From: a virus | Virus record (IMG/VR): IMGVR_UViG_3300045988_172839 | Coordinates: 174,526-238,525 of that record | DNA length: 64,000 nucleotides | Reading direction: 5' to 3' (one strand) | Shown: positions 7,536 through 63,558 of the stretch, piece after piece | Numbering within the stretch: the stretch's first letter is position 1 | Layout of the letters: each line of letters begins with the position of its first letter | The notes under the pieces: model-generated | Databases searched by the model: none | Told to the model about the DNA's origin: nothing | What the model saw: the letters and a program-made list of their open reading frames with translations, nothing else | Program-made: the position numbers and the translations under genes

Positions 7536-7551
7536 CTCGATTTTCTCTTTT

Positions 7552-35761: not shown

Positions 35762-36799
35762 TTAATTAAGCGCTAAATAATACTTAATCAAGTCCTTAAT
35801 CTCTGGTTCCAAGACCATAAGATTTAAGCGTTCTGAAAGGGATACCCCTGCCCAGTTAAAATCTCTCAAACCTTCTAAGGCTTCTGAAAGTTGAGCTTGT
35901 TTCCCTTCTGCTTTGACTTGTTCTGCTACTGACCCTTCTGTATCTTCCAAGAAAATCTCAGAAGGTGGTTTTAATTCAAAAACTTGTGGGTCAAAGTGAA
36001 CCTCTGGTAAGCCTGTGTGTGGGTTTTTACGCATCTTCACTACTGCACACCATACAAAGCTATAATCTTCTGAGCGTTTCGGTCTTGCCATGCAGCCTAA
36101 GTTCATAAAGGCACACTTCGTACCACCCTCAGTCTTAAAGGCTTTCAATTCACTAGGTTGATGAATATGACCATTTAAAATTAAGTCCACACCATAAAAA
36201 GGTTCATGTGTTGTTAAGTCAATCGCTTCCGGATTGTTTGTAAAGTTTGTTAAACCAACTCGAAAATCGTAGTGAGTTATCGCAATATTAGTGACACCTT
36301 CTACAATATCCAATTTCTCAAACTCTTTCCCATAAGGAACATAGTGGAAAACCACTCTCATAGGCTCATTTGTATCTGGATCAATTAAGTCTGGTGACTC
36401 TAACATCACTCGACCTACTTGTTTATCTTCATCTGCTAGATGTGCAGGGGAGTCAAAGTAACCCAAGGACGACAAGAACAAATAGTCATTACGCTCTTCC
36501 GACCCATGTAAATCATGGTTTCCTCGGTTAATAACCTTGTGACCTTTAATTGAGTCCAAGAATTTCATAGTGCGACTTAGCATAATGCGGTCGCCAGAGA
36601 GCCACGATACCCCTGTGCGGACTCCAATAAAGTCGCCTGTTTCATTATATAACTCTGGCTCAAGGAGTTGAACTCTCTCCAAAGTTTTATCCATACAATA
36701 ATAACAGTTCTCTTGGTAATTTATATGTTGACCTCTGTACACATTTTCAATGTGGCGGTCACCAAAAGTAACTGAGGTGTTGCCTATTACTGTTTTCAA
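35762..36799 (-). CDS. Mre11/SbcD-like metallophosphoesterase nuclease
   Basis: GDRH, GNHDLHG and LNGHIHQ calcineurin-type phosphoesterase motifs; TTG start with GAGAGGT RBS. Confidence 0.55.
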   Translation of the reverse strand: MKTVIGNTSVTFGDRHIENVYRGQHINYQENCYYCMDKTLERVQLLEPELYNETGDFIGVRTGVSWLSGDRIMLSRTMKFLDSIKGHKVINRGNHDLHGSEERNDYLFLSSLGYFDSPAHLADEDKQVGRVMLESPDLIDPDTNEPMRVVFHYVPYGKEFEKLDIVEGVTNIAITHYDFRVGLTNFTNNPEAIDLTTHEPFYGVDLILNGHIHQPSELKAFKTEGGTKCAFMNLGCMARPKRSEDYSFVWCAVVKMRKNPHTGLPEVHFDPQVFELKPPSEIFLEDTEGSVAEQVKAEGKQAQLSEALEGLRDFNWAGVSLSERLNLMVLEPEIKDLIKYYLALN

Positions 36800-36911: not shown

Positions 36912-38360
36912 CTAGCTATGCTCATGTGGACTTACTACAGTCGAACCAATTTCAAAAGGTTCTGTAATCGAAAGATGACCACAGTGTGAGCAGACACCAA
37001 CGGGATACCCTTGAGTTTTTAGTTCTTGTAAGAGTTCTTCGCTTTCTTTAAAGCAAGACTCTTTCTCTGAACCTTCAAGTTCTAATTGTTTGTTCAAAGT
37101 TTCCAATTCTGAGAACTGAGACTCTAAAGCTAAGAGAGATAGAACTTCCTCACTTCTGCTTTCTTCAATCAAACCAAAGCTAGGTGCAGTGTTCAAATCC
37201 TCAATAGCTGAGTTCAAAGTTGAAATAACTTCCAAAACTTGAGTAGAAGAGCTACTAGGAGCTTGACCGAAACTTTCAATCTCGTTTAAAGCAGTTAAAC
37301 CTTTTGAAATCTTATCGAGAGTTGCTAAACCACTTAAATTAACAATTTCAACAAGAGGTAAGGAAATCTCTGAACCAAACTCTTTTAACTTAGTCTGAAT
37401 AGAATGAACTTGATTAAGTGCTTTTAAATTAACCCCATCAATCGTAGTTGTACCTTCCAACTCAGACATAGCTTTCAAATTGCTTGCGATTGTAAGGATA
37501 CCCTCAGAGCCTTTTTCCAACTGTTCAAAAGCATTTGTTTGACTCTCTAACTGTCGAATAACTTCTTTCGTTAAGTGTCTACGCTCTACAATATCTTGAG
37601 AATAGACTCGGATACGACCCTCTACAACCTCTAACTGTTGGAAAGTCTCCTTGTTATCATCCGTCATTTGTTTAATCGCTTGCTCCGCAGTCTCTAAGTC
37701 CGCAGCTTGCGATAACATCTTATTGAGTGAAGCTGGTGATTGTTCCAAAACTGGAAGACCTTCTGCCCCCCTCATTAAATTCAAATAACGACCTCCAACC
37801 TCTGCTAAGTTGAAGTAGCGCTTCAAGAAACTTGGGGTTTCCCCAACTTTTACAAAGCGACCATCTACAAGGGTGTTATACACCTCTTTGCGAGTGCCAT
37901 CTTCGTTCAAGTACACTCTATAACCGTTCTTAAACGTAGAGCGAGGACTCAAACTCGTTCGAGTTAAATAATATTCAACCTCTAACCCATCAGACCAAAA
38001 GGTTGTAATCTTTGCTTCTAATGCTCCATGCTTAATAAAGCCTTTCGCCAGTTGCAAGCCAATACCCTTAGTGGTTAGGTTGTATTCCAAAGCCTTTAAA
38101 GCATTGGACTTCCCAGTTGAGTTGAAAGCCTTAAGCAACAACACCCAATGAGAACCAAACTCAAAGCGTTCTTTCTCATACTGAGCAAAGTTTTCAATCT
38201 CCCAAGCCAACAACTTAGCTTTCTGACCTCTAGCAATAATACCCTCTAGGTAATTACGGTGTTCTTCCGAGTCAAATAGTGAAGTTTGTTTCAACTCACT
38301 TTTGCTCTCACCCTTACTCACCTGTAGGTCAGCAAATAGTTCATCTACTACTGTTGCCAA
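36912..38360 (-). CDS. Rad50/SbcC-like ATPase N-terminal half (Walker A, coiled coil, CxxC)
   Basis: FNSTGKSNALKALEYNL (Walker A), long coiled coil, C-terminal CSHCGH; TTG at 38360 with AAAGGAAG RBS is preferred, because the track extension to 38456 runs into hairpin 38451-38474. Confidence 0.5.
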   Translation of the reverse strand: MATVVDELFADLQVSKGESKSELKQTSLFDSEEHRNYLEGIIARGQKAKLLAWEIENFAQYEKERFEFGSHWVLLLKAFNSTGKSNALKALEYNLTTKGIGLQLAKGFIKHGALEAKITTFWSDGLEVEYYLTRTSLSPRSTFKNGYRVYLNEDGTRKEVYNTLVDGRFVKVGETPSFLKRYFNLAEVGGRYLNLMRGAEGLPVLEQSPASLNKMLSQAADLETAEQAIKQMTDDNKETFQQLEVVEGRIRVYSQDIVERRHLTKEVIRQLESQTNAFEQLEKGSEGILTIASNLKAMSELEGTTTIDGVNLKALNQVHSIQTKLKEFGSEISLPLVEIVNLSGLATLDKISKGLTALNEIESFGQAPSSSSTQVLEVISTLNSAIEDLNTAPSFGLIEESRSEEVLSLLALESQFSELETLNKQLELEGSEKESCFKESEELLQELKTQGYPVGVCSHCGHLSITEPFEIGSTVVSPHEHS

Positions 38361-38450
38361 ATTTGTTCTTCCTTTCTTCTTTATCTTCGCAAAATTCCTA
38401 GAAAAGGCTAGGAACTTAGAGAAAACAAAGAAATTTCTTTCTTTGTTAAA

Positions 38451-38474
38451 GGTCAAACCATAGTTAGTTTGACC
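38451..38474 (-). terminator. hairpin (weak terminator) after the 458-aa gene
   Basis: 8-bp stem ggtcaaac/gtttgacc; only a weak U-tract. Confidence 0.35.
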
Positions 38475-38553
38475 TTCTCGGTTTTATGAGACATACCCCT
38501 CTACCAATTAAGGAGAGTTTAAAGGCTAATAACTCTTAATGATAGAGTTTTCC

Positions 38554-39930
38554 TTATTCTTCAGCTCCAAAGTCCAAAGCACTAGCTGGGTCAACGTCTA
38601 CACCCGGAGGAAGTTGACTCGCGTTTGCACCTAGACGGTTCGCTGCAGAATTTGTGATAGGGTTGGCAGAACCCCCTGCTGCTACACCTTTTTTAAGGTT
38701 TTCAGCAGTTGTTTGAATGTTCTCAACCTCAGCTTTCACTTTGTCAAGACCACCATACATTTTATCCAACTTCTCGTTTACCTCTTCGTCAGAAAGCAAT
38801 TCGCAGTTACGAACTGTTTGTACAAGGTAAAGAGCGTTATAGTGAGCTTGAGCTTCCTTGTCCCACTGCTCTTGAAGACCAAGGTATTCAGTCAAATCGT
38901 ACAAGTCAGTGAACGGAGCCACTTTTTGCATGATTTGAATGTTCAATGAAGCACCTGATTTAGAGTCTTCACTTTCGTAAGAAGCTCCACCGTTCTTCTT
39001 AGCTTTTGCAAGAGCTTGTTCATCAATCTCATAATTGAAGAGAACGAAGAACCCACCAAGTTCAGTGATACCCGGTTGTTGCGCTTGCAATTCAAAAGCT
39101 TTCATTAATTTCTCAGTGAAAGCTTTTGTAGTAAGCTTATGCCACTTCAACTCACCTTCAATCGTGTGAGCAAACTCACGTTCTGCAAACATTTGATTTC
39201 CTTCGTTATCAAGCAAAGGCGCACCTGTACTTTCGTAACGTGGAATTTGTTTTTTCACAGACGTTGGGTTTCCAGCTTCATCAAGCAAAGGATGTGTTTC
39301 TGGCGTAGTTGTAAACTTGCCATGTGCGTCCTTTGTAGTTGGAATTACCACAATAGGGAACCACATATCTGAGTTATTTTGAACTTGCAAGAACACATAC
39401 TCCATGAAGTTTTTAGTGAAGTCTTTTTCTTCTTTATACTGAGGGTCACTTGCAACCAACTCAGCTACAGAAGAATACCCTTGACGAGCTACTTCAAGCT
39501 CAATTTTCGCACGGCGCATGTCAAATGCTGCTGAAATGTAGTCACGAAGGTACTCATTGTTACCTGATTGACCGTAAGGTGCGAAGACACGGTTTTCCTC
39601 TTTTGCTTCCTCAAAGTAAGGCATTGAACCTGCCCAGTTGTTATCTTTGTCACCATTGTTAAATTTCTTCATAGTAACACTACGCATAGGTACACGGAAA
39701 GGAATCAAATCACCTTTCTCGTCAACAGTTGGGAAGCCCATGCGAGGGATGTAAACCAAAAGTTTTTGGTTTGTGTAACCGTCCTTCGCACGGTTAAAGA
39801 TTTGGATACCGAGTTCTTCTCCAAGTTCAGTGAGTGGAGAACGTTTAGCACCCGCAGTATCTTTTGCAAGGACAGCTTGCATTTGAGCCATTTGCTCTTG
39901 CGAAATTTTTGTCAAGTCTAGTTTTACCAT
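38554..39930 (-). CDS. hypothetical protein with acidic C-terminal tail (possible ssDNA-binding protein)
   Basis: 458 aa; ends DVDPASALDFGAEE, like SSB/gp32 acidic tails; GAGGT RBS; sits next to recombination genes; function is speculative. Confidence 0.55.
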   Translation of the reverse strand: MVKLDLTKISQEQMAQMQAVLAKDTAGAKRSPLTELGEELGIQIFNRAKDGYTNQKLLVYIPRMGFPTVDEKGDLIPFRVPMRSVTMKKFNNGDKDNNWAGSMPYFEEAKEENRVFAPYGQSGNNEYLRDYISAAFDMRRAKIELEVARQGYSSVAELVASDPQYKEEKDFTKNFMEYVFLQVQNNSDMWFPIVVIPTTKDAHGKFTTTPETHPLLDEAGNPTSVKKQIPRYESTGAPLLDNEGNQMFAEREFAHTIEGELKWHKLTTKAFTEKLMKAFELQAQQPGITELGGFFVLFNYEIDEQALAKAKKNGGASYESEDSKSGASLNIQIMQKVAPFTDLYDLTEYLGLQEQWDKEAQAHYNALYLVQTVRNCELLSDEEVNEKLDKMYGGLDKVKAEVENIQTTAENLKKGVAAGGSANPITNSAANRLGANASQLPPGVDVDPASALDFGAEE

Positions 39931-41416
39931 GTTTGTTTTACCTCAAGTTTTTCTAAGCAATAATTAGCATTATTTAGTAATTTAAAGCAATTTCTAAGCA
40001 ATTTAAAGCATTTTAAGCAATGTGTAACTACCGTTAGTCTTTTGTTTCTTTTGTAAAGCTTTCTATTCAGTATCTTTAGTAAAGTAAAATCTGCTAGTTT
40101 AACTAACAGTATGTAACCAAATTTTTGAAAGAGGAATTACTAAGCAACCAAATCAATTAACCAACAAATTAACAAAATCTTAGTCTATCATCCAGACCTA
40201 ACGATAGTTGTGCCTTTTGAGGTAATCTCATAAAACCAACAGTGCGACTTCTCAGCCGGACTTAAAAAGCCAACGAAAAAGGACACCCTTAACAGTGGTT
40301 ACGGTAGTCTCTACATTGGCTTTGCCTGTCATCACGACGGTCAAATAAATTAAGTGTCCTGTACGGACTTCAGTAAGCTAAACTTACTTATAAGTCATAA
40401 GCCTTTTACAACTTATGACCTGAAAAAATTTGGAAAGGAAATAGTTCAACGAGAACCACTCGGAGCTAGGAAAATAAACCTAAAAACTAGCTCCTATAAC
40501 CTAAAGACCTTTTACAATCTCTAAGTTTGAAAAGAAAGGGACAACTATGCGTTATCTAAATTGGTGAACCAAAATTCAACCATAAATCACAAATCTTTTA
40601 TAATTGGTGACCTAATAGGTTCAAAGGGTTGTTACAAATGTTAAAAACAGATATAAATGTACCATTCAATTCTTAACGCTCCACAATAACTTGCTTTGCA
40701 AGTTATTGTTTCCGCTAAAGGCATCCTACGATACCCCTAAACCCGCTCTTAAATAAAGATAAGATATAGGTTTACATTTAAAAGTTAAATTTAAGTTTTT
40801 AAACCTCGTCAGATAAATAAGTCTCAAAGACCAAGGACGGTGGGTTTTATTTGTATTCAAATGAATACAAAGATTACTTAATTTATTTAACCTTTAAAAT
40901 ACAATTAAAGAAAAGGTATTAAGATAAACTTAACTACCCTTGTGAAAGAAAAGAATAAACTTTTCCTCACAATGAGCTTTGAACCTTTTACAATTCAAAG
41001 CCCTGAACCAAAATAAATACTAGGAGAACATCAATGAGCAAACAAAGTCACGCATTAAACATTCTAAGAGGAGGGAACCAATCTCCTCTAAAAGTTGCAG
41101 ACCTCTTACAATCTACAACTCAAAAAGAAAAGAAGAAATTCTAAGATTTCTTTTGGTAAGGATGAGAAAACCTTACCTATCACATAACAACTGATTAAAG
41201 TTGCTATATGCACTACTTAATAGGAGAATCAAGTATGGAAAAATTAAGAAGTTTTGTTCAAATATTGAACACCCTACAAAATTGTAGGTATTAGTTGCAA
41301 ACCTTTTACAATCTGCAACCACAACTAAATAATATAAGGAGTGCTTACCTAACGGTAAAGTGAGCTACTTTATTAAAAATAGATCACAGTAAAGTATTTA
41401 TCAACTTTACTTATTT
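39931..41416 (-). ncRNA. 1.5-kb gene-free, hairpin-rich transcribed leader or large ncRNA candidate
   Basis: no ORF of 60 aa or more on either strand; own consensus promoter at 41417-41445; five decaloop hairpins plus many other 7-12 bp stems. Confidence 0.4.
39951..40023. repeat. about 7 phased 10-bp repeats (TTGCTTWAAA on the minus strand) just upstream of the RBS
   Basis: aagcaat / aagcatt cores recur at about 10-bp spacing. Confidence 0.8.
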
Positions 41417-41445
41417 AGTATATCACAAAAAGTAAGGTGTGTCAA
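41417..41445 (-). promoter_or_regulatory. sigma-A-type promoter (TTGACA-N17-TATACT) firing into the gene-free segment
   Basis: TATACT at 41417-41422 and TTGACA at 41440-41445. Confidence 0.6.
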
Positions 41446-41488
41446 GAGTTTTCTTTACTTTTTACTACTTTTTCTATTCTATAGTTTT

Positions 41489-41827
41489 TTAACGAATGCG
41501 TTCCAAACGCAAATGTACGACTACATTATCTTTGTAATCTGTGCGGTCAATGTCACGTTGCAAACGGTAAGAAATGTAATGCTCCGCAATTTGGAGATAT
41601 CCATTTGAGAGGAGTTTGTTTTCTACCAAAGCTTGAACCATAGAAATGGTAATATTCCCAGAGTGAGACTCTTCTAACTCTACTTCAACACTCTTAGCAA
41701 TTTTAGCTAAATTCTGTCTCAAATCATCACTCACTACAAATACAGACTGCGCTGCTTTAATCAAAGCACCGTAAATCTTATTAGCGTCAAAACCCTCTAA
41801 TTGACCGTTACGTTTTACAATTTTCAT
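41489..41827 (-). CDS. stand-alone ATP-cone domain protein
   Basis: MKIVKRNGQLEGFDANKIYGALIKAAQ matches the ATP-cone N-terminus of NrdR/NrdA/NrdD. Confidence 0.6.
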   Translation of the reverse strand: MKIVKRNGQLEGFDANKIYGALIKAAQSVFVVSDDLRQNLAKIAKSVEVELEESHSGNITISMVQALVENKLLSNGYLQIAEHYISYRLQRDIDRTDYKDNVVVHLRLERIR

Positions 41828-41846
41828 GTGTTACCTGCTTTCATTT

Positions 41847-42083
41847 TTAATTTTTATAATCGCGAATAAAACGACCATCTACAAATTGGTCTACTGAACT
41901 AAAGTTGATTAAGTGAGGAGCATCCTCAGAAATGTACTCTATCTTAATCGAATCTGTATCGCTACAATAAACAATGTCTGTAACCATTATTGCTACAGGC
42001 TCAAACTCAACAGTCAACCACTCAGAACCAATACCAATCCAGTTTTTCCAATAGTTTATCTTATCTTCTATAGTTACTTCCAT
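41847..42083 (-). CDS. DUF1653-like small protein
   Basis: C-terminal VDQFVDGRFIRDY, paralogous to 42061..42339. Confidence 0.4.
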   Translation of the reverse strand: MEVTIEDKINYWKNWIGIGSEWLTVEFEPVAIMVTDIVYCSDTDSIKIEYISEDAPHLINFSSVDQFVDGRFIRDYKN

Positions 42084-42339
42084 CTGTTACCTCATCTTTA
42101 AACAAAACCTCTCGCTTAAATCGACCATCTAAAAATTCATCTAATGGACGGAGCCAGTGTAGACGATTAGCATCTCCAAGGCGCTTATAGGATACCGCAA
42201 GAGTTAAATCAGACTCCACTATTACAATGTCTTTAACAGTGTAAAGGTTGTCTGTCTTTAAATGTCGCCAAAGAGAACCTATGGGAACTTCTTTACGTTT
42301 AAGAGATAAATCTTCTTGCACTTCTTCTAGTGATTTCAT
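42061..42339 (-). CDS. DUF1653-like small protein
   Basis: WRHLKTDNLYTV ... HWLRPLDEFLDGRFKRE pattern. Confidence 0.45.
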   Translation of the reverse strand: MKSLEEVQEDLSLKRKEVPIGSLWRHLKTDNLYTVKDIVIVESDLTLAVSYKRLGDANRLHWLRPLDEFLDGRFKREVLFKDEVTDGSNYRR

Positions 42340-50401: not shown

Positions 50402-50413
50402 TATTAGACCCTC

Positions 50414-50629
50414 CTACTCATCTTTTTGCTCAAACCACCCACCGAGAGCCATCTGTATGTTCAGCCAAACTTTATGTGGTAGTTCTTCTTCGCTCATATC
50501 GGCAGAATATGTTCCAGTTTCAAAAGCAGAAATCAACTCAGTTAATTCTCGATACCGCACCTTGTCTGCCATAAAGAGCCTCTGAGCCTTTAGAAACTCA
50601 ATTACTCTCTTGTCTTTCTCACTTAGCAT
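50414..50629 (-). CDS. hypothetical protein
   Basis: 71-aa ORF; AAGAGG RBS. Confidence 0.45.
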   Translation of the reverse strand: MLSEKDKRVIEFLKAQRLFMADKVRYRELTELISAFETGTYSADMSEEELPHKVWLNIQMALGGWFEQKDE

Positions 50630-50663
50630 TTAAAACCTCTTATTTTGCTTTCTATCAAATTTT

Positions 50664-50730
50664 CTATCTGAGAGGTAGAAATTATCGACCTCAACTTTAA
50701 AATCGAAACTGGGGCAATCTGGGACTTCTG
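50664..50730 (-). promoter_or_regulatory. conserved intergenic element, copy 3
   Basis: tatctgagaggtagaaat ... ttaaaatcgaaactggggcaatctgggacttctg. Confidence 0.45.
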
Positions 50731-50762
50731 AGAGTGCTTTGAGAGTTTTATCTCAATTTACG

Positions 50763-50786
50763 AAAAAGAGCAGACAACTATCTGCT
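50763..50786 (-). terminator. intrinsic terminator closing the tnpB-ncRNA unit
   Basis: agcaga-caacta-tctgct hairpin followed by UUUUU on the minus RNA. Confidence 0.6.
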
Positions 50787-50818
50787 TTCTTTCTCTGTCC
50801 AAACTGCGTTTTTGGAAA

Positions 50819-50888
50819 TGAGAACTTGAGGAGTCGAACCTCAAACCTAGACCAACTGCAATTGGAGCAACAGTTCTTCTAGTTCTCA
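50819..50888 (-). other. tRNA-like element (perfect acceptor stem and T-arm, no convincing D-arm)
   Basis: 8-bp terminal stem TGAGAACT/AGTTCTCA; T-arm TGAGG-TTCGACT-CCTCA; possible anticodon-like arm GTTGC-TCCAATT-GCAGT that includes two G.U pairs. Confidence 0.35.
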
Positions 50889-51149
50889 CCTACTTTTCAG
50901 TTCTGCTGAAAAGTAGAAAATATGAAACATCACAAATCTACATCTGGAAAAGGTAGTCTTTAAAGACTAGTAAAAGTCATGTAAGAACCTTTCTAAGTAT
51001 AAATTTGTTCACACGAAATAATCAGTTTCGTGCTATATATTTAACACCTTTTAGAGTGGTAAATATTAAGTTCAATCTAAAGAGTCTCTTTGAACACTCA
51101 TAAAAACCATAAAATTTAAACCAAGCCTAAATTTTTATCATCGGTTAAG

Positions 51150-51328
51150 TGTCGGCACCTTTGGAACCCTATTAAATAACCAACTACCAAAATGAATTCC
51201 CACTAAGGGTTCACCAAGTAGTTTCATTTAGAACAGCATCAAATAAATATGTACCAAAACTATACTCCTTGAAGTCTCGTTGCCGATACACCTTTGGAAC
51301 CATATCAAATAAATATGAACCAAAACTC
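51150..51328. repeat. three dispersed copies of a roughly 45-nt hairpin-forming repeat
   Basis: cacctttggaacc(c/a)tat(t/c)aaataa..accaaaa at 51150-51194 and 51281-51328, with a degenerate copy at 51231-51262. Confidence 0.75.
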
Positions 51329-51571
51329 ATGTATTTAGTTTGAAAATAACCTATCTATTTAACAAAGTTGCAACATGAATGTTATTGTCTACTCAGAAGT
51401 TACTACTGGATACCCTCAATGAAAGCACCTCTTATGTACATTGCTTTTTGAGCCGAGAATAAGCATCTGGTTGCTTAGAAGCAATTCAAACCTCTGTTTG
51501 AATTAACAACCTCCTAACGAAGTCTCCAAACGAACTCCGAAACAGTTTAAGGTCTTATTTAGGACAAGGTT

Positions 51572-55747: not shown

Positions 55748-55942
55748 GGTTTAAATGAGGATACCCTCTCAATATCTTATTCGGTTTTCCCCAACGAGGT
55801 CTCCACTGAAAACCCTAGACAAAGCTTGTCAATAAACCCGTGGGTAGTCTAAAAACTTTATAACGCTTAAGTATACTCTAAGTAACACTTTTATATTAAC
55901 TCATGTTATACATGTGTGGTTTTATAGTCTTTTCCTTGACAA

Positions 55943-56013
55943 CTAAGGTAGCTGGATTCGAACCAACGATGAAGGAGTCAAAGTCCTTTGCCTTACCTCT
56001 TGGCTATACCTTA
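55943..56013 (-). tRNA. tRNA-Gln (anticodon TTG)
   Basis: hand-folded cloverleaf: acceptor TAAGGTA/TACCTTA, D GCC/GGC, anticodon arm AAGGA-CTTTGAC-TCCTT, T-arm GTTGG-TTCGAAT-CCAGC; no encoded CCA. Confidence 0.85.
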
Positions 56014-56208
56014 ACAATAAAAGATGTAGCTGATTGGTACAGCGCTCTTCCCAATCACTTGCGCCAAACACGTTCGTATCCAGACTACATCGTAACAACA
56101 TATCTTCCTAACAACGAGGATGGTATGTTGTCACCAAGTATACTTGGGGAAGCAAGAACCCAATACCACTGTTTCTCACCAGTGAACTAGTTTCTCTCCA
56201 TAATCCCA

Positions 56209-56281
56209 TGCAGATTAACGGACTCGAACCTCTGACCCTCTGATTACAAATCAGATGTTCTACCAACTGAACTAAATCTGC
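56209..56281 (-). tRNA. tRNA-Thr (anticodon TGT)
   Basis: acceptor GCAGATT/AATCTGC, D GTTC/GAAC, anticodon arm TCTGA-TTTGTAA-TCAGA, T-loop TTCGAGT; one mismatch in the T-stem. Confidence 0.8.
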
Positions 56282-57168
56282 TCACTAAGTTTGTGGTCAA
56301 GCACTTAGAAAACTTGTCAAAGGACTCCAACCCTTCGAAGAAAGCACCCACGGTTAACCAATCTCATTAGGTTCCGAGTATCTTGGAATTATGTGCTTTT
56401 TATTTTAGGATTCCCACCTATAGACCTTCTACCAAAGCCTATCCCCGTCGAGTATTGAGCATACCCAGTCAACTTTGTTACTGCTTGGTTTTCACTAGTA
56501 GTTGACCTAGAGTTTCTTTTTTGGGTTCTAAAGAAACTTAAACCTCAAGTTTGTGTAGCTGAGAGGTTCGTGCGCACGTCCTCTCACTTACCCCAATCAC
56601 TAAGCGCGACTGAACTACATCATTTAAAAGAGAAAATAACTTTTCTCAAATGCTCGATACCGAAGTGTTAGAGCAAACACCTCAGCAATTTATTTTCTTG
56701 GATTTTTACTTAAGGGGTCAAGGGGTGGAAAAGACAAACCGTTGCCAAAACTGCGCCTTGCGTCCACCTAGTTTTAATGTACACTCAACTAGGATTTACC
56801 GCCTGAGTTTATCGACTTCATCGGATTATTGGTCACGTATAAAAGGTATTTACTTATAGCTTCAATTTTGTAAATGTGTTCTCCCCTAAAAGTTATTTTG
56901 ACAAAGCAGGGAACAAGCAGTTAGAAGTTCTTAACACGTTTTCCATAAATGACTATGTTAGACAGGGAGCCATGTTATATCAGATTTACAAACAAAATAC
57001 AAGTAAATTCGGGTTTAAACCCTCACCCGCGGTGTACACCGAAAACCCTAATCAGAAGCTCGTCTAAGATACCGTGAGGTAGCACCTTAAAATCAACGCT
57101 CGTTTAACGTCCAAAAGACGAAACAGTTTAGGTGTCTTATTTAGGACAATAATTACTAAGTAACAAAT
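56282..57168 (-). ncRNA. about 0.9-kb gene-free, comparatively GC-rich structured segment between the methyltransferase gene and tRNA-Thr (large ncRNA candidate)
   Basis: only plus-strand shadow ORFs; stems such as CCTAGTT/AACTAGG, GGTGGA/TCCACC and CGC-AAG-GCG; starts with the 30-nt box shared with the tnpB 3' flank. Confidence 0.4.
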
Positions 57169-57972
57169 TTAGTTCTTCTGAAAAACACAAACCATTTTCG
57201 TATCAAAAGGAACTAAGTCTAGCTCAAAGTAATTCTGTAAATAAGCTAAATAACTCTGATCCTTATATCTATGAATACCTTGCAACTGCAAACAATCTTT
57301 CCAAGGATACGCAATCCACTTTATGAAGGCATTTGTAACATTATATTGCTCTTTTGACTCTCGACTCAAAGACTTCAAACCCCAAACTGTATGAAAAATA
57401 ATCTCATAAGCATTTTTAACAGTAGTTACAATAGAACCGTCTTCTTTTGTCTCAACAGTATCAATAATCGAGTTTTTCTGAAGTTCTTTAATCCAAGTAT
57501 GTATTTCTATCTCACTTTGTTTTGAAACAGGTCGGAGCGTAAATGTCTCAGATACCAAATCTGGGTTAGCCCAATCTCGAATAACTAGAGAACCACCTGT
57601 TTTTAAACTATTTACAATCATGGATATGGTTTCTGTACGTTCTTGACGAGTTAAATAACTCATAATTTCGTGGAAAACACTAGAGAGATAAATTATATCA
57701 AATTGAAGTTCCCCTTTAAGTAACTCTTGTTTAGTTACCACATTTACACCCATACGAGATAAAGTAGTTTGCACAGTCGGAGAAATATCATAAGAATAGT
57801 AATTAGTACCTGTAGAAACTACATTAGCTATAAACTCATAAGAAATACCAGAACCAAAATCCAAAAGTGTAACCCCCTCTCCAAGAAATGGCTCAACTAC
57901 CTTAAATTTAGACTCAGCAGTTTGGTTCATTCTTTGAATATAGCTATTATTATCACTTAAATAGTTATCCAT
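57169..57972 (-). CDS. class I SAM-dependent methyltransferase
   Basis: VTLLDFGSGISYEF (motif I), FDIIYLSSVFHEI, LKTGGSLVIRDW. Confidence 0.65.
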   Translation of the reverse strand: MDNYLSDNNSYIQRMNQTAESKFKVVEPFLGEGVTLLDFGSGISYEFIANVVSTGTNYYSYDISPTVQTTLSRMGVNVVTKQELLKGELQFDIIYLSSVFHEIMSYLTRQERTETISMIVNSLKTGGSLVIRDWANPDLVSETFTLRPVSKQSEIEIHTWIKELQKNSIIDTVETKEDGSIVTTVKNAYEIIFHTVWGLKSLSRESKEQYNVTNAFIKWIAYPWKDCLQLQGIHRYKDQSYLAYLQNYFELDLVPFDTKMVCVFQKN

Positions 57973-58216
57973 TAAATACTCTCTCAGTTTTTCTACATGT
58001 TTAGAAAAATATCAATTATTAGACTTCCATTTTTGAAGAAATCTGATAACTTGTTCTACTTCTGACTTAGATAAATCGTAAGTACCACAGTCATACGAGC
58101 CTTTAGTTTGACAAGTAATAGATACCCCATCATTATATCCTTGTATGGTTTAATCTCCATCAGCATTCTCAAAATCTAATTGACTCATAATTACACATTT
58201 CCTTTTCTCATAGTTA

Positions 58217-58287
58217 TGTACCTTGTAGGAATCGAATCTACGATCCTCAGCTTATGAGACTGAAGATCTACCAACTGCTACCATTCC
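58217..58287 (-). pseudogene. tRNA-like element with CAT anticodon loop but no matching acceptor strands
   Basis: good anticodon arm TCAGT-CTCATAA-GCTGA and T-loop TTCGATT, but 5' GGAATGG cannot pair with 3' AAGGTAC and the D-stem is defective. Confidence 0.35.
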
Positions 58288-58303
58288 ACTTTAATTTAAC
58301 AAA

Positions 58304-58374
58304 CACAGGCAGTAGGAATTGAACCCACACTGACGATTTTGGAGACCGTAGTTCTACCTTTAAACTATGCCTGT
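58304..58374 (-). tRNA. tRNA-Trp (anticodon CCA)
   Basis: acceptor ACAGGCA/TGCCTGT, anticodon arm ACGGT-CTCCAAA-ATCGT, T-arm GTGGG-TTCAATT-CCTAC. Confidence 0.9.
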
Positions 58375-58378
58375 ATAA

Positions 58379-58459
58379 TGGAAAGAGAGGGATTCGAACC
58401 CCCGAACCCGAAGGAGCGGATTTACAGTCCGCCGCGTTTAGCCTCTTCGCTATCTTTCC
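58379..58459 (-). tRNA. tRNA-Tyr (anticodon GTA), long variable arm
   Basis: acceptor GGAAAGA/TCTTTCC, anticodon arm GCGGA-CTGTAAA-TCCGC, T-arm GGGGG-TTCGAAT-CCCTC. Confidence 0.9.
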
Positions 58460-58470
58460 GAATATTAAAA

Positions 58471-58833
58471 CTAAGTTTGACCATACAATAGACTATTACT
58501 AAACTCAAGCACAACCTTGAAAACTGTATCTATGTTTAGAGTGAAAAGTAAGATAAGTAGTCCAAATAAGATCTTTGAGACTAGTGAAGGTAGAATATCT
58601 TCAATCGAAAGACCTAATAATTCTAGTTTAATCTCAATTAGATATTTGAAAATTATCATCCCACCAAATGCAATGGCAACCGCACCATCAGTATTAGGTT
58701 GAGGAAAACCAAAGTAAATATGTAATTTATACAAAATCACCCAAGCTAGTAAACCTAAAGCAGAAGAAAGGATACCACCTGCAAGGTAAAGTAACGCTTC
58801 GTTTCGTAAATCTTTAAACCAACTACCTTCCAT
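58471..58833 (-). CDS. small membrane protein
   Basis: 120 aa with 3 hydrophobic helices; its RBS (AAGAGG) lies inside the anticodon-loop remnant of the upstream tRNA 5' half. Confidence 0.5.
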   Translation of the reverse strand: MEGSWFKDLRNEALLYLAGGILSSALGLLAWVILYKLHIYFGFPQPNTDGAVAIAFGGMIIFKYLIEIKLELLGLSIEDILPSLVSKILFGLLILLFTLNIDTVFKVVLEFSNSLLYGQT

Positions 58834-58880
58834 ATTCCAACCTCTTCAAACCAATGCTCTACCAACTGAGCTACCTTTCC
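58834..58880 (-). pseudogene. tRNA 5' half (Phe-GAA-like) with no 3' half
   Basis: GGAAAGG-TA-GCTC-AGTTGGTA-GAGC-A-TTGGT-TTGAAGA, then runs straight into the ATG of 58471..58833. Confidence 0.5.
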
Positions 58881-58930
58881 TAAAATGTGGAGACTCCTTA
58901 GAGGAGAGTTCGCACATATAAACCAACAAA

Positions 58931-59003
58931 CGGTCTCGAAGGGAATTGAACCCTCGATCTCTGCCGTGACAAGGCAGCGCGATAACCACTACGCTACGAG
59001 ACC
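58931..59003 (-). tRNA. tRNA-Asp (anticodon GTC)
   Basis: acceptor GGTCTCG/CGAGACC, anticodon arm CTGCC-TTGTCAC-GGCAG, T-loop TTCAATT. Confidence 0.9.
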
Positions 59004-59007
59004 TAAT

Positions 59008-59089
59008 GTGATAGGAAGGTCTTGAACTGACTTCCCTAGAAGTAACGGCACCTCTCCTTACTGCATCAACCTACAAATGCTTCTATCAC
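59008..59089 (-). other. atypical 82-nt tRNA-like cloverleaf with extended, bulged arms
   Basis: terminal stem GTGATAG/CTATCAC, D-like GCAT/ATGC, two roughly 7-bp bulged arms with 7-nt loops AGAGGTG and AGTTCAA. Confidence 0.3.
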
Positions 59090-59100
59090 TTAACAAAAAA

Positions 59101-59385
59101 TTAAAAGCCACCAAGAACTAAACATTCTTCCAAAGGTCTAAGAACGAGGTTTTGAAATTTAAGAAAATCCGGATACCCTAAACTATCTCTATAATGTAGC
59201 AACTGTCTTGAGAAGTAAAACTCTGTACCGTTGTAGTAAACATTACCAAGATATTCTCCAGTATGTCGATTACGCACCATAACTGCTTTAGTACCTACTA
59301 CAAAATATAGGTCTTTAACTCTAGTTCTATGTTGGATAATCAAGCGTCTAAGACTTACTGGTAATAGTTTTCTGACTCGTTTCAT
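59101..59385 (-). CDS. hypothetical protein
   Basis: 94-aa basic ORF; AAAGGAGAAG RBS. Confidence 0.5.
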   Translation of the reverse strand: MKRVRKLLPVSLRRLIIQHRTRVKDLYFVVGTKAVMVRNRHTGEYLGNVYYNGTEFYFSRQLLHYRDSLGYPDFLKFQNLVLRPLEECLVLGGF

Positions 59386-59900
59386 TCTACTTCTCCTTTC
59401 TTTTTGATAAATAATATGACTTCGGAGGGAGTCCCACCCACGACACCTGCGCTTGGTGTATTGTAAACATCAAAGCCACGTGTGTTTTTAATTCTGATAA
59501 CTAACTAGACCTTTGTCCAAGGCTTGCAACACACAAAACACCGTAAATCCACTAATGCATCTATACCCCTACACAAGAGGTAAGACCATTAGCGCAACTT
59601 CCAACTCGTGCACAAGTTGGAGGGCTGGCTGTCGCCCTTGTCGTTGCCGACAATACACCATACAGGATTCGAACCCGTGTTACTGCCGTGAAAAGGCAGT
59701 GTCTTAACCCCTTGACCAATGGTGCTTAAGGAGGGCAGGTCTCTGTTTTCCAACAGACGGATTTGGATGCACTGATCGACTGTGTACTTTTATTTGGGCA
59801 GCCCACGTTTCCCTTGTAGACAAATATGTGCAGATGTTTGGTAGTCGTTACCAAACGCTCAGTCAAATCTATCTACTGCAAAAATTAACTTCACGAATTT
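59386..59900 (-). ncRNA. promoter-driven roughly 0.5-kb non-coding unit with tRNA-Glu embedded between structured flanks
   Basis: promoter at 59901-59929; flanks contain GNRA-capped helices (TCTGTT-GGAA-AACAGA, GTCG-GCAA-CGAC) and CCAACT/AGTTGG. Confidence 0.4.
59654..59725 (-). tRNA. tRNA-Glu (anticodon TTC)
   Basis: acceptor GCACCAT/ATGGTGT (one G.U), anticodon arm CTGCC-TTTTCAC-GGCAG, T-arm ACGGG-TTCGAAT-CCTGT. Confidence 0.85.
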
Positions 59901-59929
59901 ATTATAACACAAAGAGTCAAGTTTGTCAA
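59901..59929 (-). promoter_or_regulatory. sigma-A-type promoter (TTGACA-N17-TATAAT, TGn)
   Basis: hexamers at 59924-59929 and 59901-59906. Confidence 0.65.
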
Positions 59930-59985
59930 TAAGTTTTAATTAAAAGTTCACTATTTACTAAATTAGTTAGAAACTTACCGAAAGC

Positions 59986-60348
59986 TTAGAGTGCTGTGTG
60001 ATACTCTTTTAATAGCCTAAGTTCCCTTTCATATTCACGTTGAAGTTTTAAACGCTCCGATTTAGTTTCTTCGGTCATAGGGATTTCAAAAAGCATAGAA
60101 GCATAATTGTGAGTAAACAACTCATAGGTATCATTGAAGTCTACAACAACAAACCAAAGAAACTTAACCTCAGTAAGAGTTGTTTTAGTGTTTAAAGTTA
60201 GTTGAATCCCACAGTTTAGAATCTCATTTAAAGGGTTTGAAGCAAGTTGCTCAAAAGTGAATCCCATATGTTCATTTTCATTGCTCTGAATAGTCTTATA
60301 ATCCCCAAACAAAGGACTGAGAGAAGAAGTATCTAACAAAGAAATCAC
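59986..60348 (-). CDS. hypothetical protein
   Basis: 120-aa ORF; start uncertain. Confidence 0.45.
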   Translation of the reverse strand: MISLLDTSSLSPLFGDYKTIQSNENEHMGFTFEQLASNPLNEILNCGIQLTLNTKTTLTEVKFLWFVVVDFNDTYELFTHNYASMLFEIPMTEETKSERLKLQREYERELRLLKEYHTAL

Positions 60349-60577
60349 ATCCTACTTAGACAAATACCCATATTTCTCAAAAATCTTTAATAACCTAGTG
60401 TAGCTCTTAGGGAGTGAAAAGTAGCGAACTGTATCACTATATAAAAAAGTAGAACCCTCACTCAACCTAAGTAACTTCATAACAAAACTCCTTAAAAATC
60501 TTTATTTAATATAGTATACCATATAAGTCTAAGAATTACAAACATAAAAAAAAGTAAGTAAATCAACTAAGGCTTAC

Positions 60578-60823
60578 TTACAATACTTCACTTGAAGGTT
60601 CATATTCTTTTAAAAGTTCATCTAAATCATAGTTTGGAATATCTAACTGATCAGACTTATTTCTTAAAATAATCTTCCCATCTTCAAAAATAAACTCTAC
60701 CTCATTACCTTCAGACAAATTTAAGTTTTCTAAAACTGTAGTTGGTAGAAGGATACCCTTACTGTTTCCCCATTTAGTAACCTTTTTAGTTCCTAAACTG
60801 CATCGATAATGTTCTTTAACCAT
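60578..60823 (-). CDS. AbrB/MazE/SpoVT-family DNA-binding (antitoxin-like) protein
   Basis: VTKWGNSKGILLPTTVLENLNLSEGNEVEF is the swapped-hairpin barrel signature. Confidence 0.65.
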   Translation of the reverse strand: MVKEHYRCSLGTKKVTKWGNSKGILLPTTVLENLNLSEGNEVEFIFEDGKIILRNKSDQLDIPNYDLDELLKEYEPSSEVL

Positions 60824-60837
60824 CTAAGAATCACCCC

Positions 60838-61188
60838 CTAATCATCAATTAAATCTAAGTATAAAGAGCTGAGAAGATTTTCCAAACTATCAACTGCTGC
60901 TTTATTGCAATCAACACGTAAATACTCATCATCTGGGAAAATATCTAACCAATCTAAACTTGTAGGGTAAAAACCTGTCTCTTCATAAATCTGTGCAGAA
61001 ACTTCATCTAAAGTTTCCGCTAGTTTGTCTACATCAGTAGGTTTAAAATCACCTAAACCACAAATTGCACCGTCATCTTCCCAATAATAAGGATTGATAC
61101 AAATATGGACACTACAAGGATATTCATTTAAAGCTTCTTTTGCTAAAGTTTTAGTTATAAAAGACATTTCAATTTCCTTATCTTTCAT
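60838..61188 (-). CDS. acidic hypothetical protein
   Basis: 116 aa, strongly Asp/Glu-rich. Confidence 0.5.
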   Translation of the reverse strand: MKDKEIEMSFITKTLAKEALNEYPCSVHICINPYYWEDDGAICGLGDFKPTDVDKLAETLDEVSAQIYEETGFYPTSLDWLDIFPDDEYLRVDCNKAAVDSLENLLSSLYLDLIDD

Positions 61189-61195
61189 TAGTTTA

Positions 61196-61562
61196 TGGAG
61201 CCGGTGGGAGTCGAACCCACGTCCAAACGACCTTTCCAGCTAACCTTACTGCGCACTGCTACGTTTTAACATTCTACTTTTAGGAAACGCACAAAGCTAA
61301 AAGTTATATCTCTCTTTAACAAACTAAGTTGAGAAATCTTAGTTGCGAGTACCGATGTTTATAGCAACTAAAAGATACCGGTACTTATCTTAGTCGCTCG
61401 TCTATTCGACTTTTTACTTGTGTTGAGTGACAACTAAGCCGAAGCTTAGGCAACCATTTCAACTGGTGCATTGTTATTTGCAGTTATGTTTAGGTTGGTG
61501 ATTACGTCACCACTCGGTACGAGGTTAAAAGGTACAATCGCCTGTCGAATCCAAGCGACCCC
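61196..61562 (-). ncRNA. ssrA: tmRNA (ssrA)
   Basis: 5' GGGGTCGCTTGGATTCGACAGG and 3' GTGGGTTCGACTCCCACCGGCTCCA form a tRNA-Ala-like acceptor with a G3.U pair and a T-arm; internal ORF ..GCA AAT AAC AAT GCA CCA GTT GAA ATG GTT GCC TAA followed by a UUCG-capped helix; about 367 nt. Confidence 0.85.
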
Positions 61563-61578
61563 TCATTAAGATAAATCT

Positions 61579-61607
61579 ATTATATCAGAAAGATGGTTAA
61601 ATGTCAA
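61579..61607 (-). promoter_or_regulatory. sigma-A-type promoter (TTGACA-N17-TATAAT, TGn) for the tmRNA
   Basis: hexamers at 61602-61607 and 61579-61584, about 17 nt upstream of the mature 5' end. Confidence 0.7.
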
Positions 61608-61874
61608 GGGTTATTTGTGCTATTCTCAGCTTTTGTAGGTGTTTTTGCGAATAAAAGTAAACCAAACAAACCTGCGAACCACAGGAACATCAAGGATACT
61701 CCTCTCAATTATAACTTACTATTGAGTTCATATTGGTTAAATAGAGTTGAAACATGAGAAACTACATCAATCGGAAAACTATACTCAATAGTAATAAACA
61801 AGGTAAATGCGAAGAGGAAACATAAAACTATGTAAACATTCAAAAACTTAATTTTCATTCAAGACCTCTATTTA

Positions 61875-62162
61875 TTAAGCTATCGTCCGTTGAGACAAGA
61901 ACGAAAGAAGTTCTTCTGGGGTTTGGCATCTCATCAACCGTTTAAATTCTAAACTATCTGCAATTATAGACTCAAACTCCATGTTTTGAGTTGGATCATA
62001 ATAACCTATAGTCAAACAATTACCCTCATCTACTCTTATCTGAGCAGACACTCCCCACTCACTATCGAAATCTTCTAAAACTACTTCTAAGTGTCTTTGT
62101 AACTCACTTAAACTAGACTCTAATTCGTTATGTAGTTTCATCATTTTGTTGTAGGTTAGCAT
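61875..62162 (-). CDS. hypothetical protein
   Basis: ATG at 62162 preceded by GAGGGAAGGG; the track ORF extends to 62207. Confidence 0.45.
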   Translation of the reverse strand: MLTYNKMMKLHNELESSLSELQRHLEVVLEDFDSEWGVSAQIRVDEGNCLTIGYYDPTQNMEFESIIADSLEFKRLMRCQTPEELLSFLSQRTIA

Positions 62163-62341
62163 TTTGTGGATACCCTTCCCTCTTAGATATAAAAAGTTTA
62201 CCAGCAAGAAGTTATACCAGTAAACGGGAACATTATGTGATTTATATAGCGGTTCATAACCTTGAGGAGCTTAACTCTAGAAAATAAACACCTCAACAGC
62301 ATTCTTGACTTCTGTTCAATCGCACCGCTACGAAAATCTTA

Positions 62342-63542: not shown

Positions 63543-63558
63543 ATAATATAAAAGGTAA

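Follow-up and report, generated by a model that had tools for sequence, protein, structure and literature searches.

A promoter-headed, gene-free region of a jumbo phage holds a predicted tandem RNA array with anticodon-like hairpin loops

What does a phage keep in almost 1.5 kb of DNA without genes, when its genes otherwise abut? This question is raised by a segment at positions 39931-41445 of a 64,000-nt window (the whole stretch of DNA analyzed here, positions 174,526 to 238,525 of IMG/VR record IMGVR_UViG_3300045988_172839). The first-pass annotation, made from the sequence alone, described a near-consensus promoter firing into about 1.45 kb free of ORFs, with five decaloop hairpins, other strong stems and a 10-bp repeat array next to the ribosome binding site (RBS) of a 458-aa gene. 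It raised a large structured RNA such as GOLLD or ROOL, or alternatively an exceptionally long regulatory leader.

Each of these items was found again, and the observation is therefore confirmed. The promoter TTGACA-N17-TATACT lies on the minus strand, matches 11 of 12 consensus positions, has a TG before the -10, is the best site in 38400-42200 and points toward the 458-aa gene. No ORF of 60 aa or more is present between 39931 and 41488 on either strand, the longest having 56, 49 and 44 aa. The five decaloop hairpins have the plus-strand loop CCTTTTACAA at 40402, 40508, 40984 and 41302, and CCTCTTACAA at 41102; all four exact copies of the former 10-mer in the window lie here. The 12-bp perfect stem at 40683-40709 is present, and the listed 8-bp and 7-bp stems are second hairpins of the units described below, or neighboring hairpins. 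The phased repeat has a period of 10 and 6.8 copies. The sense-strand RNA of 40370-41330 folds to -296.5 kcal/mol, compared to -204.3 +/- 5.5 for shuffled sequences (z = -16.8), while the antisense strand reaches only z = -5.4.

To see how the region is built, it was compared with related phages (designated L001, L002 and so on) and searched with a covariance model of the recurring hairpin (R1; scores in bits). The following features were distinguished, where P1 is the decaloop hairpin and P2 the second hairpin of a unit:

41417-41445, minus strand: sigma-70-type promoter TTGACA-N17(TG)-TATACT with an A-rich UP-like stretch upstream, heading the array.
41273-41321, minus strand: unit 1, P1 at 41292-41321 (loop UUGUAAAAGG), P2 at 41273-41288; 46.8 bits.
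41067-41121, minus strand: unit 2, P1 at 41092-41121 (loop UUGUAAGAGG), P2 at 41067-41089; 42.0 bits.
40941-41003, minus strand: unit 3, P1 at 40974-41003 (loop UUGUAAAAGG), P2 at 40941-40971; 46.6 bits.
40618-40897, minus strand: optional 280-nt hairpin-rich insert without a P1 unit, containing the 12-bp perfect stem at 40683-40709; present at 97-98% identity in L006, L007, L008, L010, L011, L013 and L016, absent in L004 and L009.
40584-40613, minus strand: degenerate unit, P1 with a decayed loop UUAUAAAAGA and one C.U mismatch; 23.3 bits.
40462-40527, minus strand: unit 5, P1 at 40498-40527 (loop UUGUAAAAGG, two G.U pairs), P2 at 40462-40494; 47.4 bits; the P2 stem changes compensatorily in orthologous units of L001, L002 and L005.
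40372-40421, minus strand: unit 6, P1 at 40392-40421 (loop UUGUAAAAGG), P2 at 40372-40388; 46.5 bits.
40236-40345, minus strand: conserved multi-stem 3' domain (junction of several helices), including the hairpin CGGCUGAGAAGUCG at 40242-40261.
40217-40225, minus strand: anti-SD UUACCUCAA, the exact complement of the RBS region.
40091-40109, minus strand: conserved 8-bp hairpin followed by AUUUUACUUU, a candidate attenuator or partial terminator between the array and the gene.
39954-40021, minus strand: A/U-rich phased repeat, sense UUGCUUWAAA.
39938-39946, minus strand: RBS UUGAGGUAA of the 458-aa gene, start codon at 39930.
38554-39930, minus strand: the 458-aa gene, weakly SSB-like, followed by weakly Rad50-like (below threshold) and metallophosphoesterase (Mre11/SbcD superfamily) genes.
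62616-62645, minus strand: P1 copy in the tRNA island (loop CUGUAAAAGG), the best-scoring copy in the window (50.7 bits), between two tRNA-Ser genes and conserved in L101 and L104.
62705-62734, minus strand: P1 copy in the tRNA island (loop CUGUUAAAGG); 22.3 bits.
63125-63154, minus strand: P1 copy in the tRNA island (loop UUUUCAAAGG); 24.2 bits. Weaker variants lie at 62808-62843, 63302-63338 and 63391-63427.

Since the region could have been a known RNA, Rfam models were applied first. A search of the whole window at gathering thresholds detected only tRNAs and tmRNA, and 39700-41700 at E<=10 gave only a junk match to SprD (16.6 bits against a gathering score of 100). Thus, GOLLD (RF01998), ROOL (RF03087), HEARO, OLE and group I/II introns were not matched, and neither were ribozymes or riboswitches. 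Similarity to any GenBank phage was found neither by DNA nor through the 458-aa protein. A split or frameshifted gene spanning the region, named beforehand as an observation that would overturn the first reading, was not found. The upstream 112-aa ATP-cone ORF is complete and ends with its own stop in all relatives, and in some relatives extra genes sit between this ORF and the promoter. An intron-split nrdD is rejected as well, as the ATP-cone ORF is complete, the 458-aa protein is not an RNR and no intron model matches. Mini-ORFs with AGGAG-ATG exist on the plus strand, but they are not conserved (in L001 one reads ATG AGC ATT TAA), and the pairing is specific for the minus strand.

Instead, the region has two parts, the first of which is a tandem array of five intact units and one decayed unit, each of about 90-200 nt and folding on its own. 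P1 is a 10-bp stem of free sequence but conserved pairing, capped by the decaloop YUGUNAAAGG. A linker of 2-3 nt follows (the "NUAG" signature), then the variable hairpin P2, and often a third hairpin whose 3' arm is a pyrimidine-rich tract. In 48 aligned P1 copies, 99% of cells are paired and all 10 pairs show double changes, which was reached in 0 of 500 shuffles; sliding the register drops pairing to 27-49%. The two outer pairs had not been used to select the copies, but are still paired in 47/48 and 48/48 copies, with AU, GC, UA and CG types. Using a selection neutral between G.U and A.C, 101 distinct P1 copies gave 791 Watson-Crick pairs, 203 G.U, 3 A.C and 13 mismatches, which argues for an element working as RNA on the gene-sense strand.

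The loop was examined next. U2, U4 and A8 are invariant, and G3, A6, G9 and G10 nearly so (U2 in 46/46 and A6 in 45/46 of the unselected set). Position 1 is a pyrimidine in 101/101 copies and N5 is free (A 60, C 29, G 10, U 2). The first seven positions, Y-U-[G-U-N]-A-N, carry the signature of an anticodon loop (Y32 U33 NNN R37 N38) with a GUN anticodon, as in tRNAs for Tyr, Asp, His and Asn. The closing pair is A-U in 42/48 copies, and the closing pairs R-A/U-Y match the phage's own tRNA-Tyr and tRNA-Asn; the phage tRNA-Tyr arm is GGA-CUGUAAA-UCC and tRNA-Asp has UUGUCAC. However, the loop has 10 nt instead of 7 and A8-G9-G10 has no counterpart in a tRNA, so mimicry is incomplete. Only the anticodon-arm part is imitated: neither ARAGORN nor RF00005 called a tRNA in 39931-41445, and the P2 loops are not T-loops. 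On the other hand, the same unit recurs among the tRNA genes 21 kb away, and co-oriented copies lie between tRNA-Pro and tRNA-Ser genes in the window and in relatives.

Relatives carry 4-13 units per array. Whole units are deleted, one unit is triplicated in L014, and TnpB elements are inserted between the array and the 3' domain. The 75 nt around the promoter (q16-90) are conserved in all relatives, including those with two extra genes inserted upstream, and equivalent strong promoters head the gap in the distant relatives L127 and L128. In the close group of relatives, the array is 97-99% identical while the flanking genes are 86-92% identical; however, this may reflect recent cassette exchange rather than selection. 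Scans of IMG/VR, 185,579 species genomes and JGI metagenomes with a two-unit pattern, filtered with the covariance model, found true units only in one clade of uncultivated oral jumbo phages, whose complete genomes are 240-290 kb. A PcsB-type CHAP lysin hints at oral streptococci as candidate hosts. The pattern requires two canonical units 84-114 nt apart, and single or diverged copies elsewhere would be missed.

The second part, roughly the last 400 nt, looks like a regulatory leader of the 458-aa gene. An RNAalifold consensus of the 3' domain from 12 distinct relatives contains 33 pairs, 12 of them with compensatory change (e.g., CGGC/GUCG versus UGGU/ACCA). The domain is kept in relatives whose 458-aa protein is only 54-61% identical, and its 5' motif is recognizable in L127, at 38%. 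The 9-nt anti-SD pairs with the RBS in both the MFE and centroid structures; it is invariant in close relatives, and the single change in L014 keeps a G.U pair. The stem of the terminator-like hairpin at 40091-40109 changes compensatorily in L001, L003, L008 and L017. The position of the A/U-rich repeat holds a different 11-12-nt repeat in L014 and A-rich sequence in L019 and L021.

Databases were searched for homologs of the 458-aa protein in order to find hints of its function. No family was found in Pfam, PHROG, NCBIfam or PADLOC, and profile searches against PDB and PHROGs were empty. A first AF2 model was poor (pLDDT 54.8). A second was good (pLDDT 83.4) and predicts a novel fold without PDB neighbors and with only weak SSB-like BFVD neighbors; the best named match, at BFVD rank 2, is a phage SSB with a probability of 0.89 but a TM score of only 0.22-0.28. 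The C-terminus has a disordered tail ending in a conserved LDFG motif.

Based on these results, the first-pass interpretation is partly supported. The segment is non-coding, headed by a strong promoter and predicted to form a highly structured RNA, and its last roughly 400 nt do resemble a leader, but membership in the named RNA families and a single very large fold are not supported. That the loops are conserved while the stems covary, that the loop resembles an anticodon loop and that units recur among the tRNA genes had been missed.

We consider the two elements on the minus strand, with their structures, as shown by the comparative analysis, whereas transcription, any binding partner and the mode of action are inferred from sequence alone. 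In our tentative view (probability about 0.35), host RNA polymerase would fire from the strong, presumably early promoter and make an RNA displaying many anticodon-arm look-alikes, with more copies released from the tRNA precursor transcripts. Together they would act as a multivalent decoy or sponge for a protein reading the anticodon loop of Tyr, Asp, His and Asn tRNAs. Prime candidates, by analogy only, are a host anticodon nuclease or an enzyme of the tRNA-guanine transglycosylase (TGT) type. However, no queuosine/TGT gene and no recognizable nuclease inhibitor was seen in the 64-kb window, which is only about a quarter of the genome. The decoy would protect or re-program the tRNA pool that the phage also supplements with its own tRNA-Tyr, -Asp and -Asn. 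Separately, the 3' leader would control translation of the 458-aa gene by sequestering its RBS, which may resemble the phage T4 gene 32 operator if the protein is an SSB.

Several systems are close to this arrangement. In CsrB/RsmZ-type sponge RNAs, one transcript likewise carries a variable number of hairpins with free stems and a conserved short loop motif, following a logic of multivalent titration. However, the motif here is YUGUNAAAGG rather than A(N)GGA; the nucleotide after GG is U in 42 of 48 copies, so the GGA core of CsrA sites is absent, no CsrB/Rsm family hit was found, the element is phage-encoded and no partner protein is known. In the E. coli thrS operator, leader hairpins imitate a tRNA anticodon arm and are read by a tRNA-binding protein, but these are two hairpins with true 7-nt loops next to the RBS which regulate the synthetase gene itself. 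Here, 4-13 hairpins with 10-nt loops lie 0.4-1.4 kb from the RBS, and also outside any mRNA leader. Type III antitoxin arrays (ToxI, CptI, TenpI), of which phages carry mimics, share the layout of promoter, tandem structured RNA repeats, terminator-like hairpin and protein gene. Their ToxI-type repeats are 34-48 nt, nearly identical and cut by a ToxN-family RNase of about 170 aa, whereas our units are about 100 nt, lie 86-200 nt apart and share only structure and the loop, with no common stem sequence within one genome; the 458-aa protein matches no ToxN/AbiQ or PADLOC model. A CRISPR array is not supported, as direct-repeat families are 13-27 nt at 70-100% identity and limited to the loop region. 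The T4 gene 32 operator is comparable for the last ~400 nt only: a structured element is followed by a long A/U-rich repeat stretch running into the RBS of a possibly single-stranded-DNA-binding protein gene, although the structured element is a multi-helix junction instead of a small pseudoknot, a long-range anti-SD pairing is predicted and the SSB identity is weakly supported. GOLLD and ROOL are also non-coding, highly structured, phage-borne and associated with tRNA genes, but are single large folds rather than a repeat array.

The strongest alternative, although unlikely, is that the whole 1.45 kb is one cis-acting leader, with P1 hairpins as repeated operator sites for a regulator of the downstream gene, possibly the 458-aa protein itself through autoregulation or RNP assembly on its own mRNA. 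The array always sits directly upstream of the 458-aa homolog, down to 54% protein identity, the last 400 nt carry the conserved domain and anti-SD, and more distant relatives (38% and 31%) keep a promoter-headed non-coding gap at this place. On the other hand, the latter have the gene and the gap but no units, the units also occur in the tRNA island, TnpB elements separate array and leader in L008 and L010, a terminator-like hairpin lies between them, and unit number varies from 4 to 13.

Doubtful as well is a precursor of many small RNAs, in which P1 is a common protein handle or processing signal and the variable parts act by base pairing, or in which the loop kisses the anticodon loop of tRNA-Val, as GUN is a valine codon. 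The layout of a conserved handle plus variable remainder fits, the units are placed among tRNAs cut out by RNase P and RNase Z, and UUGUAA is complementary to the tRNA-Val(UAC) loop CUUACAA of a relative. However, the variable parts are themselves hairpins with compensatory changes, not open seeds. Position 1 is C in 42 of 101 copies and N5 is not A in 41 of 101, which breaks the tRNA-Val pairing, and the complementary 10-mer is not enriched in the window (19 found against 13 expected). A pseudoknot between the loop's AAAGG and the upstream CCUUU tract was also rejected, since loop variants at position 7 do not covary with the tract in 4 of 4 cases read off the unit listing, and in two tRNA-island copies the tract abuts the stem, which is sterically impossible.

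Less likely still are put-like, RNA-based processive antiterminators that would modify RNA polymerase and let it read through the structured array or tRNA regions and the downstream hairpin. The two-hairpin module with its very short linker sits just downstream of the presumably early promoter and in terminator-rich stable-RNA regions, but one or two copies would be enough, while 4-13 are kept, and Rfam shows no similarity to put or other antiterminator RNAs. Similarly improbable is a DNA-level element, i.e., a replication origin, single-strand initiation hairpins for the neighboring primase or a selfish REP/MITE-like repeat. The region does lie in the replication module next to a Toprim primase, is AT-rich with many hairpins and is a hot spot for insertion and deletion. 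However, 203 G.U against 3 A.C pairs exclude a cruciform, the stems differ between copies of one genome unlike in recently spread repeats, cumulative GC skew shows no inflection here, and 11 exact TTGTC(C/A)TAA sites, many 21 bp apart, at 3401-3693 are a better origin or partition candidate. A single large ornate RNA of the GOLLD/ROOL kind is very unlikely despite the phage context near tRNAs and the large, highly structured region, because no Rfam model matched, units are lost without loss of the rest, and IS elements are tolerated inside.

Phage tRNA islands and long gene-free gaps are usually left unannotated. Here, such a gap holds a previously undescribed RNA family with unusually clean comparative support, in which about 100 independent copies keep a 10-bp helix through compensatory and G.U changes while a 10-nt loop stays fixed. 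Literature searches for anticodon-arm decoys or hairpin arrays in phages found nothing relevant. Whatever its function, the array is a well-defined new target for structure probing, pull-downs and cryo-EM and marks a clade of abundant, uncultivated oral jumbo phages, and the adjacent junction and anti-SD leader is a second candidate regulatory RNA. An unlikely but not excluded possibility is an RNA-based counter-defense, a multivalent decoy of tRNA anticodon arms (GUN: Tyr, Asp, His, Asn) made early in infection and also from the tRNA precursors, which would soak up a host anticodon nuclease or redirect a TGT and complement the phage's own tRNA-Tyr, -Asp and -Asn genes; if so, it would be the first anticodon-arm decoy array and a new class of phage non-coding RNA. 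The phage-host conflict over tRNAs is so far known to involve anticodon nucleases on the host side, and phage tRNAs and repair enzymes on the phage side. If the array, whose loop looks like that of the four queuosine-family tRNAs, titrates a tRNA-reading enzyme, it would add an RNA-only strategy to this conflict.

With the exception of four short ORFs that overlap minus-strand genes or tRNAs, all ORFs of 90 aa or more and all RNA genes are located on the minus strand of the window. Almost no matches to Pfam or PHROG were obtained, and neither DNA nor protein matches were found among 50,697 GenBank phage records. Relatives are contigs of 230-290 kb from human oral and HMP metagenomes, so this is an uncultivated jumbo phage. 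At least ten tRNA genes and a tmRNA were detected at 55.9-64 kb. This tRNA island (55900-64000) comprises tRNAs for Gln, Thr, Trp, Tyr, Asp, Glu, Ser (two) and Pro, a partial tRNA which looks like Asn at the window edge, and a phage tmRNA (61196-61562, tag ANNNAPVEMVA). Sub-threshold tRNA-like remnants lie at 63565-63619, 63637-63692 and 58225-58280. The region of interest and its neighbors are arranged as follows.

41489-41827: stand-alone 112-aa ATP-cone ORF following a Toprim primase; most similar to the N-terminus of NrdD/NrdA, without an attached catalytic RNR domain, and conserved in all relatives
41445-41417, minus strand: promoter TTGACA-N17-TATACT, 11 of 12 matches, with a TG extension
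40618-40897: optional 280-nt hairpin-rich segment inside the array of hairpins, present or absent as a block among close relatives and found nowhere else in the sequences examined; it includes a perfect 12-bp palindrome, the stem at 40683-40709
39954-40021: 10-bp repeat, 6.8 copies
38554-39930: 458-aa ORF
36912-38456: 514-aa ORF, weakly Rad50/RecF-like (below threshold)
35762-36799: metallophosphoesterase ORF (Mre11/SbcD superfamily)

The first-pass annotation had described a near-consensus promoter firing into a segment without ORFs of 60 aa or more, which holds five decaloop hairpins and other strong stems and ends in a phased 10-bp repeat. Each of these items was found again, and the observation is real and far beyond chance. 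No ORF of at least 60 aa is present, and five hairpins carry the plus-strand loop CC(T/C)TTTACAA, with all four exact copies of that 10-mer in the window lying here. The sense RNA of 40370-41330 folds with z = -16.8 against shuffled sequences, while the antisense strand gives z = -5.4.

Read on the gene-sense strand, each hairpin consists of a 10-bp stem (P1) with the loop YUGUNAAAGG, a linker of 2-3 nt giving the signature NUAG, and an immediately following second hairpin (P2) of 5-12 bp with a free loop. Copies were first collected from the window and 17 IMG/VR relatives. The resulting 46 distinct hairpins gave 310 Watson-Crick pairs, 50 G.U, 4 A.C and 4 mismatches over the eight inner pairs. 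In an alignment of 48 copies, 99% of cells pair and all ten pairs show changes on both sides, which was reached by none of 500 shuffles, and sliding the register drops pairing to 27-49%. The two outermost pairs were not used for selection, but still pair in 47/48 and 48/48 copies with AU, GC, UA and CG types. The count was repeated over all clade sequences with a criterion neutral between G.U and A.C, and 101 distinct hairpins gave 791 Watson-Crick pairs, 203 G.U, 3 A.C and 13 mismatches. Therefore, the element functions as a single strand of the sense polarity and, given the promoter, that strand is RNA.

In the set of 46 copies, loop positions U2, U4 and A8 never vary, while G3, A6, G9 and G10 almost never do. 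In the set of 101 copies, position 1 is always a pyrimidine, position 5 is free (A 60, C 29, G 10, U 2) and position 7 is mostly A. Positions 1-7 thus read Y-U-[G-U-N]-A-N, which is the general signature of a tRNA anticodon loop (Y32, U33, anticodon, R37, N38), and the anticodons are those of Tyr, Asp, His and Asn. The closing pairs (R-A/U-Y) are those of the phage's own tRNA-Tyr (GGA-CUGUAAA-UCC) and of its apparent tRNA-Asn. However, three further invariant nucleotides, A-G-G, have no counterpart in tRNA. The resemblance is, therefore, mimicry of the anticodon arm rather than membership of the tRNA family.

A covariance model of P1 was applied to the whole window without filters. The five units were found at 42-47 bits, and a decayed sixth at 40579-40614. 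Unexpectedly, copies were also detected in the tRNA island, with the best hit of all at 62611-62646 (50.7 bits), others at 62700-62735 and 63120-63155, and additional weaker variants, all co-oriented with the tRNA genes they sit between. A weak P1-like hit (51032-51067, 15.7 bits) falls in another gap of about 1.2 kb without an ORF of 90 aa or more (50402-51571), which also holds a single TTGTCCTAA site at 51559-51567.

In relatives, the gap between the ATP-cone gene and the 458-aa gene measures 1.1-4.1 kb. Whole units are missing in two of these relatives (L004 and L009), one unit is triplicated with identical P1 in a third (L014), and two extra genes precede the promoter in five relatives. 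TnpB genes (IS605 OrfB / Cas12f-like TNB) of 471 and 405 aa are inserted into the non-coding region of relatives L008 and L010 (IG positions 1208-2623) and L002 (IG positions 2389-3606); the window itself also has one OrfB_IS605 hit among its ORFs. Relatives whose 458-aa protein is only 54% and 61% identical have 13 and 7 units at about 100-nt spacing in the same place, and none elsewhere in 21 kb. About 19 further metagenomic contigs show the same two contexts only, i.e., upstream of the 458-aa homolog (5-13 units) or in tRNA islands (4-7 units). Orthologous units keep P2, and a third hairpin, through compensatory changes. In the closest group of relatives, promoter and array are 97-99% identical while the flanking genes are 86-92% identical, but in relative L001 the gene is 97% identical and the array is barely alignable. 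Thus, the array apparently moves as a cassette.

The 3′ part is a separate element, in which four features follow the last unit.

40236-40345: conserved domain of about 110 nt with 33 predicted pairs, 12 of them with compensatory changes; kept in the 54-61% relatives and recognizable in a 38% relative
40217-40225: invariant UUACCUCAA, the exact complement of the RBS UUGAGGUAA (39938-39946); the two pair in both the MFE and centroid structures
40091-40109: 8-bp hairpin with a weak U tract, showing compensatory changes in relatives
39954-40021: A/U-rich repeat running into the RBS, replaced by other repeats or A-rich sequence in other relatives

In L002, the TnpB insertion removes the 5′ half of the conserved domain, which makes it a natural knock-out. 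A more distant relative (L128, positions 7400-7860), with a 458-aa homolog at 31% identity and conserved gene order, holds no P1 units in its promoter-headed gap. Instead, two tRNA-like acceptor/T-arm minihelices (GGTTCGATTCC; GTAGTAG...GAGGTTCGACTCCTC...CTACTAC) with long inserts are present, which are called neither by ARAGORN nor by Rfam.

Remote homologs of the 458-aa protein exist only in similar phages, and no protein family or solved structure was matched. A confident structure prediction (pLDDT 83.4) has no PDB neighbor, and its best named neighbor is a phage "single-stranded DNA-binding protein" with a probability of 0.89, but a TM of only 0.22-0.28. The protein has a disordered C-terminal tail ending in a conserved LDFG motif, and its gene sits before the weakly Rad50-like and metallophosphoesterase genes in an order conserved down to 31% identity. 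We read this as a weak hint of an SSB. If so, the leader would be analogous to the phage T4 gene 32 operator.

Regarding the mechanism, the analysis itself establishes the promoter consensus and its conservation, the sense-strand RNA structure, the conserved anticodon-like loop, the multiplicity and modular turnover of the units, and their co-location with tRNA genes. In contrast, we only infer that the units act in trans, in numbers, as decoys or a sponge for a factor reading GUN anticodon loops, and this explanation is tentative, with a probability of about 0.35. Candidate factors include anticodon nucleases with YGUN-type specificity and tRNA-guanine transglycosylase, which recognizes U33-G34-U35. 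The phage's own tRNA-Tyr, tRNA-Asp and apparent tRNA-Asn genes fit a conflict over exactly these tRNAs.

Among the alternatives, a purely cis-acting leader with multiple operators is possible but less likely, and a precursor of small base-pairing or tRNA-Val-binding RNAs is somewhat more doubtful still. Antitermination of the put type is improbable. A DNA-level origin or a selfish repeat appears about equally improbable. The origin idea is weakened by the strand asymmetry and also by a better candidate elsewhere in the window. The latter is a second ORF-free gap of 1.6 kb (2509-4140, minus strand) with 11 exact TTGTC(C/A)TAA sites, many 21 bp apart, at 3401-3693 (14 in the whole window against 3.4 expected) and further variants recognized by eye. 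It also contains a (GAACAGA)x7 tandem repeat near 2860-2905 and a strong extended -10 promoter near 3920-3950, and looks like an iteron-type origin or partition site. A single giant RNA of the GOLLD/ROOL kind is the least likely reading.

Compared with known systems, the array would work most like multi-hairpin sponge RNAs (CsrB/RsmZ) and like the anticodon-arm mimicry in the thrS operator, while in layout it resembles type III antitoxin arrays. Nevertheless, it fails the defining features of each, as there is no GGA motif, there are no identical short repeats and there is no ToxN-like gene. It also fails every Rfam model, including those which the first-pass annotation had named for a check. 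No description of such an array was found in the literature searched, and the unit was found only in this phage clade, although the pattern used for pre-filtering requires two canonical neighboring units.

The first-pass annotation had considered a very large structured RNA, naming GOLLD and ROOL without claiming identity, or an exceptionally long regulatory leader. This interpretation is only partly right, since the segment is a structured non-coding RNA plus a leader, but it is not GOLLD/ROOL and not one large fold. Although its function remains a hypothesis, the element is a new RNA family with strong comparative support and an intriguing signature of tRNA mimicry.
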